The notes beneath the pieces were generated by a model. The model was not told where the DNA came from, did not search any database, and saw only the letters and a list, made by a program, of their open reading frames with translations. From a virus, in the IMG/VR virus record IMGVR_UViG_3300036790_000034, positions 1-64,000 of that record: DNA of 64,000 nt. One strand, given 5' to 3'. Of the stretch, positions 4,422 through 60,774 are shown piece after piece. The first letter of the stretch is position 1, and each line of letters starts with the position of its first letter. The position numbers and the translations under genes were made by a program.

Positions 4422-4879
4422 ACGAGTTTCCTCCGCATCAAAAGTCCGCTGCCCTTGGGACCATAGTAGCCATCCAAAACTTTGGTGACTCTGAATCCCT
4501 CTTTCAAGTATAGCCTAATCGCATCGACGTTGTCAACGTTGACAGCCAGGCCGATTCCCTTCGACCACCGCAGTCCGTTCTCACGGACCTCACAGACGGC
4601 CTCATCAATCAGAGCCTTGCCGATGCCCTGACCACGCGATTCCTTGCGGACGGCGACGGCCCAGATGTACGGCTCACCATGCTTGTTCGTCCTGATGAGA
4701 AAGCCGAGAAGCGTCCGGCGACCGTATTCATTCTGGTCTCCGTACATGACGAAGACTTGGCCCGTGTCGTATTGCGTCCGCAGAATCCCACGCGGGGCAC
4801 GCTCAAAATCGTCGAACGATGCGTCGTTCAATTCGACGATGTCCTCGAACACCGTGTTCTCTCGTGTCTTCAGAATCAT
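4418..4879 (-). CDS. GNAT family N-acetyltransferase (RimI-like)
   Basis: YIWAVAVRKESRGQGIGKALI acetyl-CoA motif; NVDAIRLYLKEGF...GYY. Confidence 0.9.
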   Translation of the reverse strand: MILKTRENTVFEDIVELNDASFDDFERAPRGILRTQYDTGQVFVMYGDQNEYGRRTLLGFLIRTNKHGEPYIWAVAVRKESRGQGIGKALIDEAVCEVRENGLRWSKGIGLAVNVDNVDAIRLYLKEGFRVTKVLDGYYGPKGSGLLMRRKLV

Positions 4880-5754
4880 CGGAACCTCCTGCCCTTGTCC
4901 TCAAATACATCAGTCGTCGGAGCCGCTGGCCTCGGAGCCGGGACGTGCTGCACAACAACAGGGACTTGCTTTATCTGAGACTTGGCCCACAGAATCTTGG
5001 CCTGAATCTCTTGGATTTCCAACTGCTTGAGTTGGTCTTTCTTTTCTTGCAACGCCGCGTTCAGCTTCGACGCGTCATCAAATTTCGCTTGCTCAAAAAG
5101 TTCATCGACCTCGCTCTGCATCTGACCAACCATCTCTTGGGCTTTCTTCTTATCACCCAATTGCAGTTCGGCAATTTTCTTCGCGAGTTGATAGTCGGTC
5201 AATTGAGATGCGTCGTACTTCTGCATCTGCTGCTGGATGATGGCCGCGTTCTGTGGCTTCTCGTCTATCATGGACCCCGCTTGTATCGGCAACGGCTTAT
5301 ACGAGGGCAAGTCCTTGAAGTCCACACTCACAGGCTTCATTTGGGCACCGCATCTTGCACAGCGAACCCAGATGTCACCATTCAACATCTGGTGCTTGAT
5401 AAGAGCAGAGCCGCCGTCGTTCTTCTTGTGCGAACACGGGTCGGGATTTGTCACGAGTGCTTTGCAAGTTGTGCCGTGACCACTCGGGCCTGTCAGGGCT
5501 TCGTGGGTCCACACTCCGCACAGTTCGCACTTCCATTTATCACCAGTGTGGGCGTGCAGCTTGACATACTCTTGGACAGCAAAATCAATCGTCTGGTCAT
5601 CAACAGGCTTCGAGCAAGTCATGCCGACGTTGCACACATCACAATGAAGGTGCATCCGATTCGTCAGGAACGCCATTGTAAATCTGACATTGCCCTTCGT
5701 CGCGGTCTTCAGCCATTGTTCCATGTAGGCGTCGATGCCGCCGAGTGACGCCAT
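4876..5754 (-). CDS. multi-zinc-finger/coiled-coil protein with the KHQMxNGDxxVRCxRCG motif
   Basis: CDVC, CELCG, CSHKK..KHQMLNGDIWVRCARCG, C-terminal coiled coil; GGAG RBS before MASL. Confidence 0.7.
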   Translation of the reverse strand: MASLGGIDAYMEQWLKTATKGNVRFTMAFLTNRMHLHCDVCNVGMTCSKPVDDQTIDFAVQEYVKLHAHTGDKWKCELCGVWTHEALTGPSGHGTTCKALVTNPDPCSHKKNDGGSALIKHQMLNGDIWVRCARCGAQMKPVSVDFKDLPSYKPLPIQAGSMIDEKPQNAAIIQQQMQKYDASQLTDYQLAKKIAELQLGDKKKAQEMVGQMQSEVDELFEQAKFDDASKLNAALQEKKDQLKQLEIQEIQAKILWAKSQIKQVPVVVQHVPAPRPAAPTTDVFEDKGRRFR

Positions 5755-5755
5755 G

Positions 5756-5902
5756 CTATCTCCGTAATTCGTCAAGCAACTTCGAGCCGAGGATGTATAT
5801 ACCTATGACGGCTGGGAACAGCGACCAGATGGGACAGTTGACGTAAAGCAGGCCCGCAGCAAATGCCTCGAAGAGAAGTCCGACAACCCATCTCAGGTCC
5901 AT
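5756..5902 (-). CDS. small membrane protein (48 aa)
   Basis: MDLRWVVGLLFEAFAAGLLYVNCPIWSLFPAVIGIYILGSK...; GGGAG RBS; not in the ORF track (below 60 aa). Confidence 0.5.
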   Translation of the reverse strand: MDLRWVVGLLFEAFAAGLLYVNCPIWSLFPAVIGIYILGSKLLDELRR

Positions 5903-5931
5903 GCTACGCTCCCAGTTCAGCCATGATGCTC

Positions 5932-6063
5932 CTAGCTCTGCATCGCCAACGCGAGAACTTGCTTCGCGGCGTTGCGATAGAATTCAGCGAGTGCCGGACG
6001 GGTCTTGACGCGTTCCGCTCGGTCTTCGTACTTGCGAACTAAATTGACGAGTGCTGTGTTCAT
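5932..6063 (-). CDS. small hypothetical protein (MNTALVNLVRKY...)
   Basis: AGGAGG RBS. Confidence 0.55.
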   Translation of the reverse strand: MNTALVNLVRKYEDRAERVKTRPALAEFYRNAAKQVLALAMQS

Positions 6064-6071
6064 GGAGCCTC

Positions 6072-6215
6072 CTAGAAAGTGTAAGCGGTCGTGTTGATAC
6101 AACAGGCGAAGAACCAATACGCCGCGAGTTTCCAGTTCCCGGTCCATGCGAACGCGACACTAGTCGCGAGGCATTCGACCGACATCACTGCGATGACGAC
6201 TTTGGCAAACTTGTT
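6072..6215 (-). CDS. small membrane protein (approximate GTG start)
   Basis: Two hydrophobic segments: VVIAVMSVECLATSVAFAW and LAAYWFFACC. Confidence 0.45.
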   Translation of the reverse strand, partial: NKFAKVVIAVMSVECLATSVAFAWTGNWKLAAYWFFACCINTTAYTF

Positions 6216-6478
6216 CACTTCGCCATCATCTCCGTCAGCTTGTGTGTGTTCTTGACAGTGCAAGTCTGCTCGTAAACAATCCCATCGACGACGACAAACT
6301 GGCGGTCGAACATATTGATGAGAACCGCGTCAATGACGGTCGGATTCTTCAGTAGGAACGCCATATCGAACGGGTGAATAAGTGCGACGTTCTCAGCCGC
6401 GACTGCACGGCGGACTTCGCTGCGTGCCGCTTCGATTCGCTCTTGAACTTGCGGGTCGATTGGTGTTGGTGTGCTCAT
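6215..6478 (-). CDS. hypothetical protein (87 aa)
   Basis: AGGAG RBS, operon context. Confidence 0.6.
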   Translation of the reverse strand: MSTPTPIDPQVQERIEAARSEVRRAVAAENVALIHPFDMAFLLKNPTVIDAVLINMFDRQFVVVDGIVYEQTCTVKNTHKLTEMMAK

Positions 6479-6485
6479 AGGTCTC

Positions 6486-6680
6486 CTAGAATACGTCGAT
6501 GGTGCCCGAGAACTTTACCTCTTTGACCACGGGTCTTTTCAATCCGTCGTTACGCTTCGCGAAGGTGATTGCTTTGCGACCAGCGGCCTCCGCAGTCGAA
6601 GCCAAAATCCACAGGCTCTCGTACGACATGTGCTGCATCGTCACGCTCCACAAATTTCTTGATGTTGCTCGTTTCGGCAT
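6486..6680 (-). CDS. hypothetical protein (64 aa)
   Basis: AGGAGGAG RBS. Confidence 0.6.
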   Translation of the reverse strand: MPKRATSRNLWSVTMQHMSYESLWILASTAEAAGRKAITFAKRNDGLKRPVVKEVKFSGTIDVF

Positions 6681-6695
6681 ATCTCCTCCTAAAGT

Positions 6696-6839
6696 CGGTG
6701 GGCCGCTGAGGGATTGAACCTCCGGCTCCCAGAGATTACTAGGCGTGGCTTGTTCTAGAATTGCCAGCCGTTCAATCAGTCAGGGACTCTCTGTGATGCT
6801 GGCAGGACTTGCGGTCCCGTTGCGAACCAGCGTCGGCCC
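6696..6839 (-). ncRNA. expanded tRNA-like RNA (144 nt)
   Basis: Acceptor GGGCCG/CGGCCC-A-CCG; T-arm GAGG-TTCAATC-CCTC; D-like stem CTGG/CCAG enclosing an extra hairpin; anticodon-position stem CAGAGA/TCTCTG with a loop of about 50 nt. Confidence 0.6.
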
Positions 6840-6844
6840 GTATA

Positions 6845-7435
6845 GAAATTTTGTCCCCGTTCTTTGACACGGTGGGGACCAAGCCGCGTGACTACTACCG
6901 ACCAGCGGCAGCAGCCATTGCACGAGGTTTAGTCGTAGCAAGTATTTTTTCTGATGTCTCGTTGGCGTTCCGACATCGAACGCTCTAACCTGAAAGCGAA
7001 AACACCTTTCAAGTCGGTGAGCCACAGCACCCCGACACGCAAGTTGAAACGCTGACTCATCCCCGTCGAAACCATGACGCCCCCATCAAGCGTGCTCACT
7101 CCACGAGACCAGACCTTTAGAGCCGCACAATCGCGGCGGGCTGTCATACCTTGCCCACTTGCCGACGGTGGAACGTCGAGGGGCGGTCATCGTGAGCACG
7201 CTTGGTGGAGGCGGCGGGAATCGAACCCGCGTCCGAGAACAGCAACGCCAACCCTCAACGTGTGTAAACTTATCGAGCGTGATGCGGTGTTAGGACTCCC
7301 TCGCCCTGCCGTCGCAGTATAGTGGGTGTTGATTCACCGTACCAGTATCCGCACTACTCATCGCACGCTCAATCTTTATCCCGGTCTCGGGCCAAAGCCT
7401 TGTCCGCTGGCAAGCCAGCCACTCGCTACCCATCC
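6845..7435 (-). ncRNA. ssrA: circularly permuted (two-piece) tmRNA; outer boundaries approximate
   Basis: The 3' tRNA-like half GGACGCGGGTTCGATTCCCGCCGCCTCCACCA (CCA end 7203) lies upstream of the 5' half GGGGGCGTCATGGTTTCGACGGGG (start 7084); 7-bp acceptor with G3.U70; helix-2 complementarity between the pieces; tag frame 6939-6895 ATTKPRAMAAAAGR followed by TAG TAG. Confidence 0.85.
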
Positions 7436-7756
7436 CTATTTAGCGACCGGAATCTTCAGAACTGAATTCTCTTCCGTGGTCTCGATGCGGTGACAATTCG
7501 CACACAGCACGTCGCACTTCTTGACCTCGGATTTTATTTTCGAGAGTGCCCATCCCGCAGTAGCGGCTCGGAGCACTCCGAACAATTTCGTCTTACGATT
7601 TCGATGAGCAAAGTCCAAAGCCGCTGGGTGCTCTTTGTAGCCGCATCGTCTACAGCCCCGTTTTAGGCGATAGGAATCCAGCCATGCTTTGGTCTTCGCA
7701 ACTCGTCGTGCTCGACAAGCCTTCCAACTTGCATAAACGTGAGACGGCTTGCCCAT
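7436..7756 (-). CDS. HNH-type homing endonuclease (CxxCG...LDFxH...KCDVLCANCHR family)
   Basis: GCRRCGYKEHPAALDFAH...EVKKCDVLCANCHR. Confidence 0.8.
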   Translation of the reverse strand: MGKPSHVYASWKACRARRVAKTKAWLDSYRLKRGCRRCGYKEHPAALDFAHRNRKTKLFGVLRAATAGWALSKIKSEVKKCDVLCANCHRIETTEENSVLKIPVAK

Positions 7757-7760
7757 TGTT

Positions 7761-8000
7761 TTACAGCTTTTTCGCGAGGTCTTCGACAGCAGTGTGCAGG
7801 TCTTCGACGACTTCGGTATGAGCATCGACAGCAGCCTTCACCGCATCCGTCTTCACCTTCACCGCTTCCAAATTCGCGGTCGCAGACAGGGTGTTGGCTT
7901 CCTTCCCCGCCTTGTTAAACAGTTTTCCAATCTGACCACGGAAGCCGTAGCCAAGAGCCACGCCTGCGAGAATCAGAATTGCATAAACCAGAATATCCAT
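7761..8000 (-). CDS. small membrane-anchored protein
   Basis: N-terminal TM segment MDILVYAILILAGVALGYGF; GGAGG RBS; own promoter. Confidence 0.7.
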   Translation of the reverse strand: MDILVYAILILAGVALGYGFRGQIGKLFNKAGKEANTLSATANLEAVKVKTDAVKAAVDAHTEVVEDLHTAVEDLAKKL

Positions 8001-8037
8001 GTTTCCTCCGTATGCGGCAAAGTCTTCCGCTCTTACA

Positions 8038-8067
8038 ACTCTATCAGACCTTGATTCGCGGTGTCAA
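8038..8067 (-). promoter_or_regulatory. sigma70-like promoter; probably also drives tmRNA expression
   Basis: TTGACA-18 nt-TAGAGT with a TG extension. Confidence 0.6.
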
Positions 8068-8221
8068 GTTTTCTTTCAGAAAAACTTCTTGTGAAAGGGT
8101 CTGTCACAGTGGCCGGGGCGTGCTGTTCTAGTTCAGGCCACTTTCGTCCCGGCTAAACCCACAGCCAATGCTAGGGTTCAAGCCTTCATCTTTGCTCATG
8201 TGTCCTCCAGTGCGTAGTCCC

Positions 8222-8250
8222 AAGGTATCCCAACCCTCGCCCGCTGTCAA
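8222..8250 (-). promoter_or_regulatory. sigma70-like promoter
   Basis: TTGACA-17 nt-TACCTT, then GGAGG and a 23-codon ORF (MSKDEGLNPS...). Confidence 0.55.
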
Positions 8251-8251
8251 G

Positions 8252-10351
8252 CTACTTTCGATAGTACGCACAATCGTATCCTTCAGCCGCGAGAACGAAG
8301 CCCATGCCCTCTGCCCAATCAGGCGTTCGTGTCATCGCGTGCTCCATGTCCTTGTAAGTTAGCTTCGATGTCAGAGGCGATTCCCCGACAACTTCATCGT
8401 GAATCGTCATGATGATGATGAAGCCAATCTTCTCAGCCTCTAACATTCCGTTCAGCAGAATGTCGCGGGCCACAGCTTGAACAACATTCTCACAGATGAG
8501 ACCGCCGTAGAGCCTGTTCTCTTGCAGACCTTTCGCGTCCCATTTGTCAAACAGAACGTTCTCTTGCATCGCACCCCAACTGGTCTCGCTCATCTCGACG
8601 CGAGGATTGAGGTAGTGAAGTGCTCTGCCACTCGGCAACTTAATCTTGAGCATCTTCGGATTGCGACCATCGACCACGACGCCGCTGACGTAAATCGCTA
8701 CGCCGCCCTTCGTCGCTTTGATGACCGCAGCGTTCAATGCTTTCCAGTACGCCGGAATCTCACTGTACTTTTCACGGAATGCAGTGACGTAAGTCTTCGC
8801 TGTTTTCTCATCGAGTGTGACGCCGAACGTCGCAGCGTATTCGATGAACTTCTCCCAGCCCATTCCGAATCCGCAGCCGAGGATGATGACCTTGCCGTTC
8901 GCACGCTCTGCCGACGTGATTGTGTCGTAGGGTTTGTTCAACAGGAAGGACATGATGTCCTTATACAAGTCGAGACCCTTCGCGTACGCGTTAATCATCG
9001 TCTGGCAACCTGCAAGAGCCGCCAGCACACGAGATTCGATTTGAGCCAAGTCACTGACGCTGAGTTTATTTCCCGGCGTAGCAGAGAACGAGGCTCGGAT
9101 TGTTCCTGCGACCGCAGCCATCAGAGTCATTGACTTGATTGGCTTGCGTTCTTTCTTTGGGTCTGTGTTCGTCGCGTTGAACGCCAAACATTCCGTGTTG
9201 TACTCTGTCACCAACCCCGCGACATCGAGCGTGTTGTTTCGGATTGCGTTGACAATTCGCTCACGCAGAGTGCCGACATCTTTGCTCGGCTTGAAAAGGT
9301 TCTGAAGCTGAACTCCTCGTCCGCTCCATCGTCCAGTATGAGCACCGTGGTAGACGAACTGGTCACGCAGCCGACCATCCGCTCCGATGCGGTCCTCAAT
9401 CGTTTGAAGTTTCGTGTAAGCCGACCCGCCGAGTTTTTCTTTCAACTGGAGAACCTGATATGCGACAGGGTCCATCTTCCAGTGAATGAGTCCGACTTTC
9501 AATGCCTCCGCGATGTGAGCCTTGTCGAGCGAGTCGAACTTGTAGCCCTTCGATTGCAGCCACTCGTCTAGCTTACTTAGGCTCTTACCAGACTTCGTGT
9601 ACGCGAGGCCCGTCAACGTCTGCATCGTGACGTTGATTTCTTTAATCTCACCGAGAGCGTATGCCTTCGCATTCTGGACAAAGATTTTATCAATCCACAC
9701 GCCCTGCTCGTTCATCCTCTGGTCGAGAAGCCATGCTTGCGTCTCGCCTTCAGTGATGGGACAGTTCATTGCGACAGCGGCGTACCACACACCCCGCTCC
9801 GCACGAACGTCCTGTAAGCAATATTCTTTGAACGTCTCCCACGCGTCCGGGTCTGAATTCCAATCGCGGTAATAAAATTCCGCAGCACCCGGATTTTTCT
9901 TGAGAAACGTTTTGTTCCGCTTCGACGGCTCGGAGAAAATTTTCGTCGGCTTCTTCTTGCCGAGGATGACCGTCTTCTGCAACTCGATGTTGATGTTCAG
10001 TGCATCGGCTGCACGGTCCAGACCGATTGGCAGCGACATATAAGCACACAGCACACTCGGGTCGAACCACTCTTGCTGCGGGATGGCGTATCCGAGTCGG
10101 TACTGGAAAATATCCTTCTCGAAGTTGTAGTTCCAAGCCATCTTCATGACCGTGGGGTCAATGAGTCCAGCGTGGAGTTCCATCGGCATCGGCTCTCCGA
10201 GGATGGGAAGCCACAGCTTGGGTTCGTCATCATCGAACGCCCACGCCAGCATCAGGACTTCAGTCGTGTCGTCCTTCGAGTACCTGTCGAGACCAAAATC
10301 GGGAAGGTCGATGAACGACCGCGTTTCAAAATCAAGCCACAGCTTTCTCAT
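8252..10351 (-). CDS. DNA polymerase family A with 3'-5' exonuclease domain
   Basis: ExoI LDFET; HTGRWSG; motif A DLAQIESRV; motif B RANGKVIILGCGFG; motif C TIHDEV. Confidence 0.95.
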   Translation of the reverse strand: MRKLWLDFETRSFIDLPDFGLDRYSKDDTTEVLMLAWAFDDDEPKLWLPILGEPMPMELHAGLIDPTVMKMAWNYNFEKDIFQYRLGYAIPQQEWFDPSVLCAYMSLPIGLDRAADALNINIELQKTVILGKKKPTKIFSEPSKRNKTFLKKNPGAAEFYYRDWNSDPDAWETFKEYCLQDVRAERGVWYAAVAMNCPITEGETQAWLLDQRMNEQGVWIDKIFVQNAKAYALGEIKEINVTMQTLTGLAYTKSGKSLSKLDEWLQSKGYKFDSLDKAHIAEALKVGLIHWKMDPVAYQVLQLKEKLGGSAYTKLQTIEDRIGADGRLRDQFVYHGAHTGRWSGRGVQLQNLFKPSKDVGTLRERIVNAIRNNTLDVAGLVTEYNTECLAFNATNTDPKKERKPIKSMTLMAAVAGTIRASFSATPGNKLSVSDLAQIESRVLAALAGCQTMINAYAKGLDLYKDIMSFLLNKPYDTITSAERANGKVIILGCGFGMGWEKFIEYAATFGVTLDEKTAKTYVTAFREKYSEIPAYWKALNAAVIKATKGGVAIYVSGVVVDGRNPKMLKIKLPSGRALHYLNPRVEMSETSWGAMQENVLFDKWDAKGLQENRLYGGLICENVVQAVARDILLNGMLEAEKIGFIIIMTIHDEVVGESPLTSKLTYKDMEHAMTRTPDWAEGMGFVLAAEGYDCAYYRK

Positions 10352-57745: not shown

Positions 57746-57871
57746 CCCTCGTGCTCCCGGCGACCCCGGTTTGAGCGAGGGCAGCGTGACTCCCCACCAG
57801 TTAGAGACAAAGCGGGAGCGGTGGACGGGTAGACCGGAAGCGTGAGCCGAACTGCCCGACAAATTCTATGA

Positions 57872-57952
57872 CCCCGTGAAGATGAGAAATGTGGTCAGCA
57901 TCGCTCATTCGAGAGCGAGGAACGAAGGGCACACCACCTTCCACGGGGACCA
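57872..57952 (+). ncRNA. non-canonical tRNA-like element
   Basis: 7-bp CCCCGTG/CACGGGG plus A-CCA; GATG/CATC; GCTC-ATTCGA-GAGC; GAAGG/CCTTC with an atypical loop. Confidence 0.5.
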
Positions 57953-58033
57953 GTTTAAGCGTTCCGAGACGTAAACTCGGTGGGGTGACACAGCACAGAG
58001 CCGCGACCTATCGTCACAAGATAGGAGTTCTTC

Positions 58034-58330
58034 GTGGGCTACAAAAGTAAGTTGGATAAACAGGCTTGGGACAAACGCCGCATGGCGGATACCAAGCAAC
58101 GAATTGAGCAGTATCTCCGTGAACATCCCTGCGTGGATTGCGGAAATGATGACATAAATGTGTTAGAGTTCGACCATGTACGAGGATGTAAGTCTTATAA
58201 CGTGGGTCGATTCGGAACGCTTCGCTTTGAAACTCTATTGAAAGAAATTGCGAAGTGTGATGTTCGATGTGCGAACTGTCATCGTAAGAGACATAGACTT
58301 TGTGGTGCGTACCGTCCGATGACGGCGTGA
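58034..58330 (+). CDS. HNH-type homing endonuclease
   Basis: PCVDCG..VLEFDHVRG..EIAKCDVRCANCHR; RBS inside hairpin CCTATC/GATAGG. Confidence 0.8.
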   Translation: MGYKSKLDKQAWDKRRMADTKQRIEQYLREHPCVDCGNDDINVLEFDHVRGCKSYNVGRFGTLRFETLLKEIAKCDVRCANCHRKRHRLCGAYRPMTA

Positions 58331-58377
58331 GCCTGTGATGCTCATCGAAAAGGGTTTGACTCCCTGCGTACCCTCCA
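58303..58377 (+). tRNA. non-canonical/degenerate tRNA-like gene, anticodon GTG (His)
   Basis: TGGTGCG/CGTACCC-T-CCA; CCGTC/GACGG with a 4-nt loop; 6-bp GTGAGC/GCTCAT around CT-GTG-AT; AGGG-TTTGACT-CCCT. Confidence 0.5.
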
Positions 58378-60414: not shown

Positions 60415-60419
60415 ATTTG

Positions 60420-60774
60420 TCTGCCTCTGTTGAAACAGGCTTGCCCCGGATTCAGGGTAACGAACGCCCACGCGACACAGATGGCGTGGTGATGGTCTGC
60501 TGCTCGGTGAAACTCCGGGCGTATCCGAGATGACGAGAAGGATTACGCACGACGCGTGCTGGCGTTGCATCGTGTGACTTCGCTCGTCGGTTCCACCAGC
60601 AAAGACTTGCCGTAGAAGACCCCTGAACTCGTCGAAGGCGTTGCAGCCGAGAGTTCATGCCTCTACGCCCCACCTTTCCGGCCCGATGCAACTAAGGCTA
60701 GTGAGGTTGCGTGCAACGGGGAACTCGCTAGGTCCGTCGAGTGGGCATTTTATAGATGCCTGTTACGGACCCAC
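60420..60774 (+). ncRNA. structured ncRNA candidate (about 350 nt) inside the tRNA cluster
   Basis: Nested helices and a T-loop-like GCTCGG-TGAAACT-CCGGGC; no credible ORF. Confidence 0.45.

Follow-up and report, generated by a model that had tools for sequence, protein, structure and literature searches.

What is the 144-nt tRNA-shaped RNA gene that lies between a permuted tmRNA and a small open reading frame in a phage of soil metagenomes, and what might it do for the phage? The stretch analysed here, hereafter the window, comprises the opening 64,000 nucleotides of a phage genome that is complete at 97.5 kb, carries direct terminal repeats and is present in soil metagenomes. On its minus strand, a family-A DNA polymerase is followed by a 79-aa ORF, an HNH endonuclease, the permuted tmRNA, the element and small ORFs (Table 1). 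An initial annotation of the element had offered three explanations, namely an RNase P punctuation signal that makes the 3' end of the tmRNA coding piece, a decoy for tRNA-targeting defences, or a tRNA with insertions. The reading preferred here, at a probability of roughly 0.6, is that of a non-decoding, tRNA-framed small RNA whose frame would give processing and stability and whose conserved, extended arm would bind a partner.

Table 1. Features of the element and its surroundings in the window; element positions follow the index n = 6840 - coordinate.
Feature	Position	Strand	Detail
Family-A DNA polymerase	8252-10351	(-)	
Promoter-like site	8038..8067	(-)	TTGACA, 18 nt, TAGAGT with TG; consensus match only
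Permuted two-piece tmRNA gene	6853..7295	(-)	ARAGORN; Rfam RF04321 at 62 bits
tmRNA acceptor piece, end	7203	(-)	CCA
tmRNA coding piece, start	7084	(-)	GGGGGCG
tmRNA tag	6939->6892	(-)	ATTKPRAMAAAAGR, then two stops
tmRNA terminal hairpin	6879->6853	(-)	
Spacer, tmRNA terminal hairpin to element	6840..6852	(-)	13 nt
tRNA-shaped RNA gene (element)	6696..6839	(-)	144 nt
Acceptor 5' strand and A7	6833..6839	(-)	GGGCCG + A7; pairs with 6700-6705
D-arm	6798..6831	(-)	stem GCUGG/CCAGC (5 bp), 24-nt loop
D-loop hairpin	6803-6819	(-)	CGGGAC-CGCAA-GUCCUG; direct reading
Anticodon-like stem, 5' strand (C45-A52)	6788..6795	(-)	pairs with 6728-6735
58-nt block identical to L002	6733..6790	(-)	spans the insert
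Insert in anticodon-loop position	6736..6787	(-)	52 nt; direct reading, folds, L024 comparison
Insert mini-hairpin	6779-6787	(-)	GUC-CCU-GAC; then linker UGAU
Insert UGAAC strand	6770-6774	(-)	
Insert main hairpin	6742-6769	(-)	
Insert UAGUAA strand	6736-6741	(-)	
Anticodon-like stem, 3' strand	6728..6735	(-)	
T-arm	6707..6723	(-)	GGAGG-UUCAAUC-CCUCA; 4 Watson-Crick pairs (GAGG/CCUC) + G117.A133 mismatch
G134, acceptor 3' strand, discriminator, end	6696..6706	(-)	G134, CGGCCC, A (6699), CCG (6696-6698); direct reading
RBS	6683-6690	(-)	AGGAGGAG; directly downstream of element
64-aa ORF (ORF64)	6486-6680	(-)	directly downstream of element; RBS and ORF span 6486..6690

The frame of the element is that of a tRNA. 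Six Watson-Crick pairs, G1-C140 to G6-C135, form the acceptor stem and are followed by an A7.G134 mismatch, the acceptor and T-arm together stack in 12 layers, the variable region counts 4-5 nt, and the anticodon-like stem CAGAGA/UCUCUG, which can be extended to eight layers, encloses 52 nt. The claimed extra D-loop hairpin, GGGAC-CGCAA-GTCCT, was confirmed by reading the minus strand, and the CCG end is real, since contigs of two further studies cover 6689/6694 onwards with zero differences. The acceptor stem and T-arm had been called intact; the frame is indeed there, but both arms carry a mismatch at their junction. Moreover, position 8 is C rather than U, and the D-loop has GC in place of GG. 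With such an imperfect core (C8, the D-loop GC, and the mismatches A.G and G.A where acceptor and T-arm meet), neither folding into an L-shape nor efficient RNase P cleavage is guaranteed. The minimum free energy of the element has a z of -2.8, and one of 200 shuffles folds as well.

A polymerase search retrieved three close relatives of the phage, L002, L003 and L004. L002 is a complete genome with 75% identity in the polymerase, and it carries a homologue of the element at L002:9696-9842, which is 147 nt long, ends in CCA and also lies directly ahead of an RBS. The order in L002 is tmRNA, an 88-aa membrane ORF (L002:9469-9735), the element and a homologue of the window's 87-aa ORF (ORF87); the 88-aa ORF is very hydrophobic, and its final 13 codons overlap the acceptor and D-arm of the element. 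In L003, the ORF87 homologue follows the tmRNA directly, with no element in between, and none was found anywhere in the 43% of the L003 genome examined; in L004, a contig end cuts the locus. A degenerate pattern describing the T-arm and the acceptor 3' strand led to a third member, at L024:6855-7033 (179 nt, CCA end), in L024, a jumbo phage of 332 kb that is unrelated to the other two. There the element is part of a tRNA array packed tightly with 8-10-nt spacers, and the permuted tmRNA of the jumbo phage itself lies about 4 kb away. Such an array, with short spacers and an encoded CCA, is the context of a tRNA-processed RNA. A covariance model built from the window and L002 elements gave 181 bits for L002 and 62.9 bits (E 1.5e-13) for L024, with one copy per genome.

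In addition to these members, contigs with 0-1 differences to the element occur in runs from three further studies, and a 15-kb contig from one of them holds the whole 841-nt stretch with eight differences, none of which is listed inside the element. Among the runs listed as containing the stretch, none is on record as RNA. A 693-nt contig of a close relative, found in run X5, still has the ORF64 gene (83% identity) and the two ends of the element, while the middle 86 nt of the element are replaced by 89 unlike letters, as known from the match coordinates; the insert is thus not universally conserved, and the cargo differs among close relatives. When the insert core was sought as an exact pattern in viral, genome and metagenome collections, L002 alone was found, and no meaningful match to the element came from GenBank phages, plasmids or E. 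coli genomes. Within the window, the stretches 57746-58377 and 60415-60774 of the genome's tRNA cluster have no sequence similarity to it.

The tRNA array of L024 holds further unusual RNAs. Two other oversized tRNA-shaped units lie at L024:6484-6643 (about 160 nt, with a long D-loop insert) and 6722-6846 (about 125 nt), and a 38-nt CCA-ended minihelix lies at L024:7195-7232; ARAGORN and Rfam made no call for any of these three stretches. L024:7297-7583 encodes three tRNAs with a CUA anticodon (amber suppressors), and in one of them (7403-7503, 101 nt) the variable arm forms another anticodon-like hairpin, with UUA; these tRNAs, as read from their sequences, may point to stop-codon recoding in the jumbo phage. 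As well, an AT-rich 62-kb phage encodes a 92-nt CCA-ended RNA (L025:3908-3998) that was missed by ARAGORN and Rfam and has an 8-bp acceptor, a 4-bp T-stem, a Tyr-type loop CUGUAAA and no D-arm. Its T-arm and acceptor 3' strand fit the family pattern applied in this analysis. The RNA was not taken as a family member, having only the acceptor and T-arm in common (31 bits) and an anticodon-type hairpin of its own. Rfam at E<=1 gave no match for either the L024 or the L025 element.

Conserved structure in homologues, on which the initial annotation had in part staked its proposal, is present. When the three members are aligned under the guidance of the model, 97.5% of the 80 stem cells form standard pairs, compared with 37-45% for slid 3' partners, and six pairs, two of them acceptor pairs and four belonging to the anticodon-type stem, have changed on both sides, values that none of 500 shuffles reached; an alignment fitted to the model leans slightly towards structure, and with three sequences the signal is modest but consistent. 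The compensations between window and L002 can be read directly in an ordinary MAFFT alignment. In L002 and L024, both partners of acceptor pairs 5 and 6 are changed, the D- and T-stems are invariant across the three members, and the T-loop varies among them (UUCAAUC, UUCGACU, UUCGAUU). The D-loop hairpin has a different sequence and 7 bp in L002, and the D-loop extends to about 53 nt in L024. Judged by these sequence comparisons, the element is a real, selected RNA gene. Two alternative pairings were discarded. The insert GAUUGAAC (window 6767-6776 (-)) is exactly complementary to the window T-loop GUUCAAUC (6712-6719 (-)), so that the minimum-free-energy fold of the window element opens the T-arm; this pairing is specific to the window and is lost in L002. 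Another anticodon stem, CCCUGA/UCUGGG, is broken in L002, where CAGAGA/UCUCUG is compensated.

ARAGORN draws the permuted tmRNA at 7295->6804, which overlaps the element by 36 nt, and in L002 and L003 too its 3' limit falls inside ORFs, in protein-coding sequence. The 3' limit at 6804 is unreliable, and the true end of the coding piece is probably at or shortly past the terminal hairpin. For annotators, this means that the permuted-tmRNA 3' limit of ARAGORN can swallow a neighbouring gene. The element had been placed about 12 nt past the tmRNA hairpin; its position stands, and the exact spacer is one nucleotide longer. The base preceding G1 is C in all three members. The tags of the three related-phage tmRNAs (window 6892-6939 (-), L002:9360-9404, L003:9164-9211) end in AAAGR and not in the usual Ala-Ala, and GCUGCCGCUGGUCGGUA is invariant among them at the nucleotide level, while the tag of jumbo phage L024 is ANAPKAMAAHA. 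An early protein of the window (4876-5775) has a C-terminal GRRFR, and its L002 homologue ends in GRKIR. Scans with tmRNA patterns found nothing beyond the three known relatives.

Downstream, ORF64 has 22 homologues in soil and other metagenomes at 68-98% identity, no Pfam or PHROG match, and no relatives in viral or genome collections or by tblastn against GenBank phages. It is missing from the complete L002 genome and was therefore rejected as an obligatory partner of the element. All three element-bearing phages also encode an RNA ligase-family protein (PF09414; window genome G000, L034, L033/L036), and that of the window genome (G000:65311-65823, beyond the window) has 403 aa, with PF09414 and a PHA02142 OB-fold domain.

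To which class of RNA does the element belong? Rfam, at gathering thresholds and at E<=10, gave no tRNA, tmRNA, YrlA, intron or ribozyme match on it, RF00005 had no match in 6500-7400 at E<=10, and ARAGORN in its default mode made no call. Like a canonical tRNA (RF00005), the element has an acceptor, D-stem, anticodon-type stem and T-arm in the usual order, a discriminator A73, and a terminal CCG in the window or CCA in L002 and L024, and it would likely be a substrate of RNase P and the CCA enzyme. Unlike a canonical tRNA, it has 52 nt between the stem strands instead of a 7-nt anticodon loop with U33, C8 instead of U8, and the two purine mismatches at the acceptor/T junction. A decoding tRNA was rejected on these grounds, so that the earlier description as a tRNA with insertions holds for the anatomy but not for the function. 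A hammerhead was rejected as well: the window has CUGAUUGA and GUAA, and L024 CUGAAAA, against the CUGANGA and GAAA strands of the hammerhead three-way junction, the essential G8 is not kept, and Rfam has no match. The 5' and 3' ends of YrlA lie in its Ro-binding stem, not in an acceptor stem. YrlA Y RNAs resemble the element in being 100-150-nt tRNA mimics that also occur in phages (RF02553; PMC4201824); this class was dismissed, as the element has no RF02553 match and the complete phage genome no Ro60 (TROVE, PF05731) gene.

The phage tRNA-like stable RNAs are a closer comparison. Such RNAs (T4 species 1 and 2, T5 RNA1) have been known since the 1970s, and to our knowledge no function has been assigned to them. 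Like them, the element lies in a tRNA/tmRNA cluster, has tRNA-like ends, falls within 120-180 nt and lacks a decoding loop. T5 RNA1 (AY543070 30501-30644) is annotated as 'tRNA-like stable RNA with unknown functions' and folds into an acceptor-like stem, D-arm, expanded anticodon arm, variable arm and T-arm. It matches the element in its 144 nt, its place in a phage tRNA region, the retained acceptor-like stem, D-arm and T-arm, and an anticodon arm enlarged by an insert of about 45 nt; it differs in its Leu-type frame with a long variable arm, whereas in the element the variable region is short, the D-loop bears an extra hairpin and the insert is of the junction type. The T4 species 1 and 2 (rnaC, rnaD; AF158101 70908-71171) are likewise stable RNAs, of 119-139 nt, at the end of a phage tRNA cluster, and rnaC (139 nt) has a canonical T-arm; unlike the element, they have a different internal architecture and no tmRNA neighbour. 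T4 RNAC and RNAD still figure in the literature as RNAs of unknown function (PMC9697503). Model R1 scored T5 RNA1 at 15.6 bits and the T4 RNAs at about 6 bits, no better than ordinary tRNAs. By analogy, the element is of the same kind as T4 species 1/rnaC and T5 RNA1, the T4 RNAs being expressed. Lacking homology to T5 RNA1 or T4 rnaC/rnaD, it represents a separate family of that kind, which on the present comparisons is new and small (three phages).

The most distinctive part of the element is its insert. What had been described as a loop of about 50 nt does enclose 52 nt, but it is not a loop, since it folds as a mini-hairpin and a main hairpin with conserved joining strands. The 58-nt block that spans it is the longest exact match between window and L002 in 14 kb of synteny, followed by matches of 32 nt (PolA) and 29 nt (tmRNA). 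The stems right beside this block have drifted and been compensated between the two phages, and identity amid drifting stems indicates that selection is strongest on the insert. Read from two distinct sequences within the three-member family, the inserts of the window and L024 appear to have a plan in common, not a sequence: a mini-hairpin, a UGA..AAC linker, a main hairpin, a (C)[U/A]AGUAA tail and the returning stem strand. The 3-bp mini-hairpin is GUC-CCU-GAC in the window and, with a changed pair, GCC-AAGUAC-GGC in L024, while the main hairpin is GGC-U-GGC...GCC-AC-GCC in the former and CGCGG...CCGCG in the latter.

In the insert, UAGUAA stands opposite UGAAC in the window, and AAGUAA opposite UGAAAA in L024. 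In the loop-E/sarcin-ricin bulged-G motif (S-turn), an AGUA strand is set against a GAA strand between two helices. Because the strands of the insert fit this consensus, UGAA(C) and (U)AGUAA might form a bulged-G motif of the loop-E/sarcin-ricin type, closed by a U-A pair. Moreover, the apical loop holds an 8-nt palindrome in either insert, UUCUAGAA for the window and ACCAUGGU for L024, through which loop-loop dimerisation might be possible. A further likeness was noticed in L002, where CCUAGUA...GGACCGGAG of the element (L002:9795-9818) matches the sarcin-ricin loop of E. coli 23S rRNA (L040:3292-3312), with an 8-nt spacer against 5. The window counterpart of GGACCGGAG (6720-6743 (-)) is GGAGCCGGAG, and the second block is not kept in L024; in this match, the AGUA strand alone is likely to be meaningful.

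From these features we infer how the element might work, from its transcription, processing sites and stability to the S-turn and the existence of a partner. The promoter-like site (8067->8038) lies upstream of the run of 79-aa ORF, HNH, tmRNA, element and ORFs, and no terminator-like site was found in 5700-8300, so that the element is probably part of a single leftward transcript. This early transcript would start from the site at 8067, run through the 79-aa ORF, HNH, tmRNA, element and ORF64, and be cut by the tRNA machinery. The 12-layer acceptor/T stack and the A-CC 3' end would direct RNase P to cut just ahead of G6839, and the 3' end would be trimmed to A6699 and completed to CCA by a host enzyme, the phage encoding none. 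The tRNA frame would in this way provide excision, defined ends and stability. Engineered tRNA scaffolds likewise hold a foreign RNA in the anticodon stem of a tRNA, which is processed and stabilised by the cell (PMC3753655); those are man-made, and the element would be a natural design. The working part would be the extended 'anticodon' arm, that is, the long stem, the junction, and the mini-hairpin and main hairpin, in which the UGAA/AGUAA strands would most likely form an S-turn platform for binding a protein or an RNA that probably belongs to the translation or tRNA machinery. Searches for a partner by complementarity gave nothing above shuffles against the phage tmRNA, the phage genome or E. 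coli. Excision of the element would also part the tmRNA from the downstream mRNA as a by-product: the RNase P cut would leave the tmRNA coding piece with a 13-nt tail, and 3' trimming would leave an mRNA starting a few bases ahead of the ORF64 RBS.

Could this by-product be the whole purpose? The element would then be a tRNA-like processing signal only, by which the tmRNA coding piece and the mRNA behind the element are set free, and the RNA cut out between them would be functionless; this would be a pure form of the punctuation proposed initially. The position is suitable, the element lying between the tmRNA and an RBS 5 nt downstream in a stretch in which no terminator-like site was found, and the L002 element likewise directly precedes an RBS; in addition, the acceptor/T stack and the A-CC end, on which such processing would draw, are the best-kept parts of the frame. 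Mitochondrial tRNA punctuation and plant mitochondrial t-elements offer a parallel, being tRNA-like folds between cistrons that could direct RNase P and 3' processing (PMC1920247), but they need no conserved cargo, while in the present element the insert is the most conserved part. An acceptor/T minihelix would suffice for punctuation, which would leave the identical 58-nt insert and the motifs shared with L024 superfluous. Moreover, the L024 element belongs to a tRNA array and is not flanked by mRNA at all, and the L003 tmRNA manages without an element before its ORF87 homologue. Since adjacency to the tmRNA is not conserved in L002, L003 and L024 and the insert is conserved, punctuation is at most a side effect, and we regard it as unlikely to be the sole role.

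The decoy proposed initially is also improbable. The element would then act as a decoy or sponge for a host factor recognising the tRNA body or the CCA end, such as acceptor-targeting toxins or nucleases, nucleotidyltransferase toxins or tRNA-binding defence sensors, and the extended arm would add affinity or block turnover. A gene set of tRNA, tmRNA and RNA ligase is often tied to tRNA-directed conflicts. All three genomes carry tRNAs, a tmRNA and the PF09414 ligase-family gene, the element keeps the acceptor, T-arm and CCA while its decoding parts are gone, and the X5 relative has a different middle part, as might be expected in an arms race. However, no target was identified, the best-known tRNA-directed defences, the anticodon nucleases, would have nothing to cut where no anticodon loop exists, and a letter-perfect insert between diverged phages is the pattern of purifying rather than diversifying selection.

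It is very unlikely that the element is the precursor of a working tRNA, from which the D-loop hairpin and about 45 nt of the insert would be removed to give a CUAGUAA loop with the anticodon AGU. This explanation was retained because these final 7 nt of the insert resemble an anticodon loop, CUAGUAA fitting Y32-U33-NNN-R37-A38, and L024 retains AGUAA; when introns were permitted and the threshold was lowered, ARAGORN proposed Thr(AGU) for the window and L002. For L024, however, it gave Gly(ACC) with different stems, and position 33 there is A rather than U. The insert would lie between positions 31 and 32, where we know of no intron class in tRNAs. A tRNA bearing a group I intron was rejected, the insert having 52 nt against the at least 200 nt needed and no Rfam intron or ribozyme match at E<=10. 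Furthermore, none of the three phages encodes RtcB, and the D-loop insert would have to be removed as well.

A relation to tmRNA, either as a tag-less competitor of host tmRNA with a tRNA-like domain, as reported for phage DS6A, or as a stop-only mini rescue RNA, is highly improbable. In its favour, the element adjoins the phage tmRNA, a permuted tmRNA is present in each of the three phages that have the element, UGACUGAUUGA offers a UGA stop in every frame, and CDS-less tmRNA forms exist (PMC11915505). Yet the third acceptor pair is G3-C70 in all three members and not the alanine pair G3.U70, whose absence from the window element the initial annotation had noted, and a full D-stem and anticodon-like stem occupy the place of SmpB. 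Neither Rfam (RF00023, RF04321) nor ARAGORN (-m) found a tmRNA in the element, the latter in any of the three members, the three-frame UGA stops are lost in L024, and complementarity to the tmRNA does not exceed shuffles; tmRNA and tag-less tmRNA were rejected accordingly as classes. Finally, a decaying tRNA gene or a DNA-level element without RNA function (an attP-like tRNA fragment or a protein-binding palindrome) might be suspected from the non-canonical core and the apical-loop palindromes, but it is hardly credible given compensatory changes in two stems, the retention of both acceptor halves and conservation across unrelated phages.

The reading of a processed, non-decoding RNA with a partner-binding arm can be taken one step further, tentatively and with some doubt: the tRNA frame might be a natural display scaffold for exchangeable arm modules, one common to the window and L002, another in L024 and a third represented by the unlike middle of the X5 relative, which might act in trans as effectors docking via the S-turn onto a host translation or defence factor. 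If this were true, the 58-nt module would be an effector locked onto an invariant host target. The split between frame and cargo is unusually clear in this family, the stems drifting and compensating while 58 nt stay identical, and the recurrence of the frame in an unrelated jumbo phage with a remodelled insert points to the arm, with its UGAA/AGUAA junction and palindromic loop, as the place to seek the partner.
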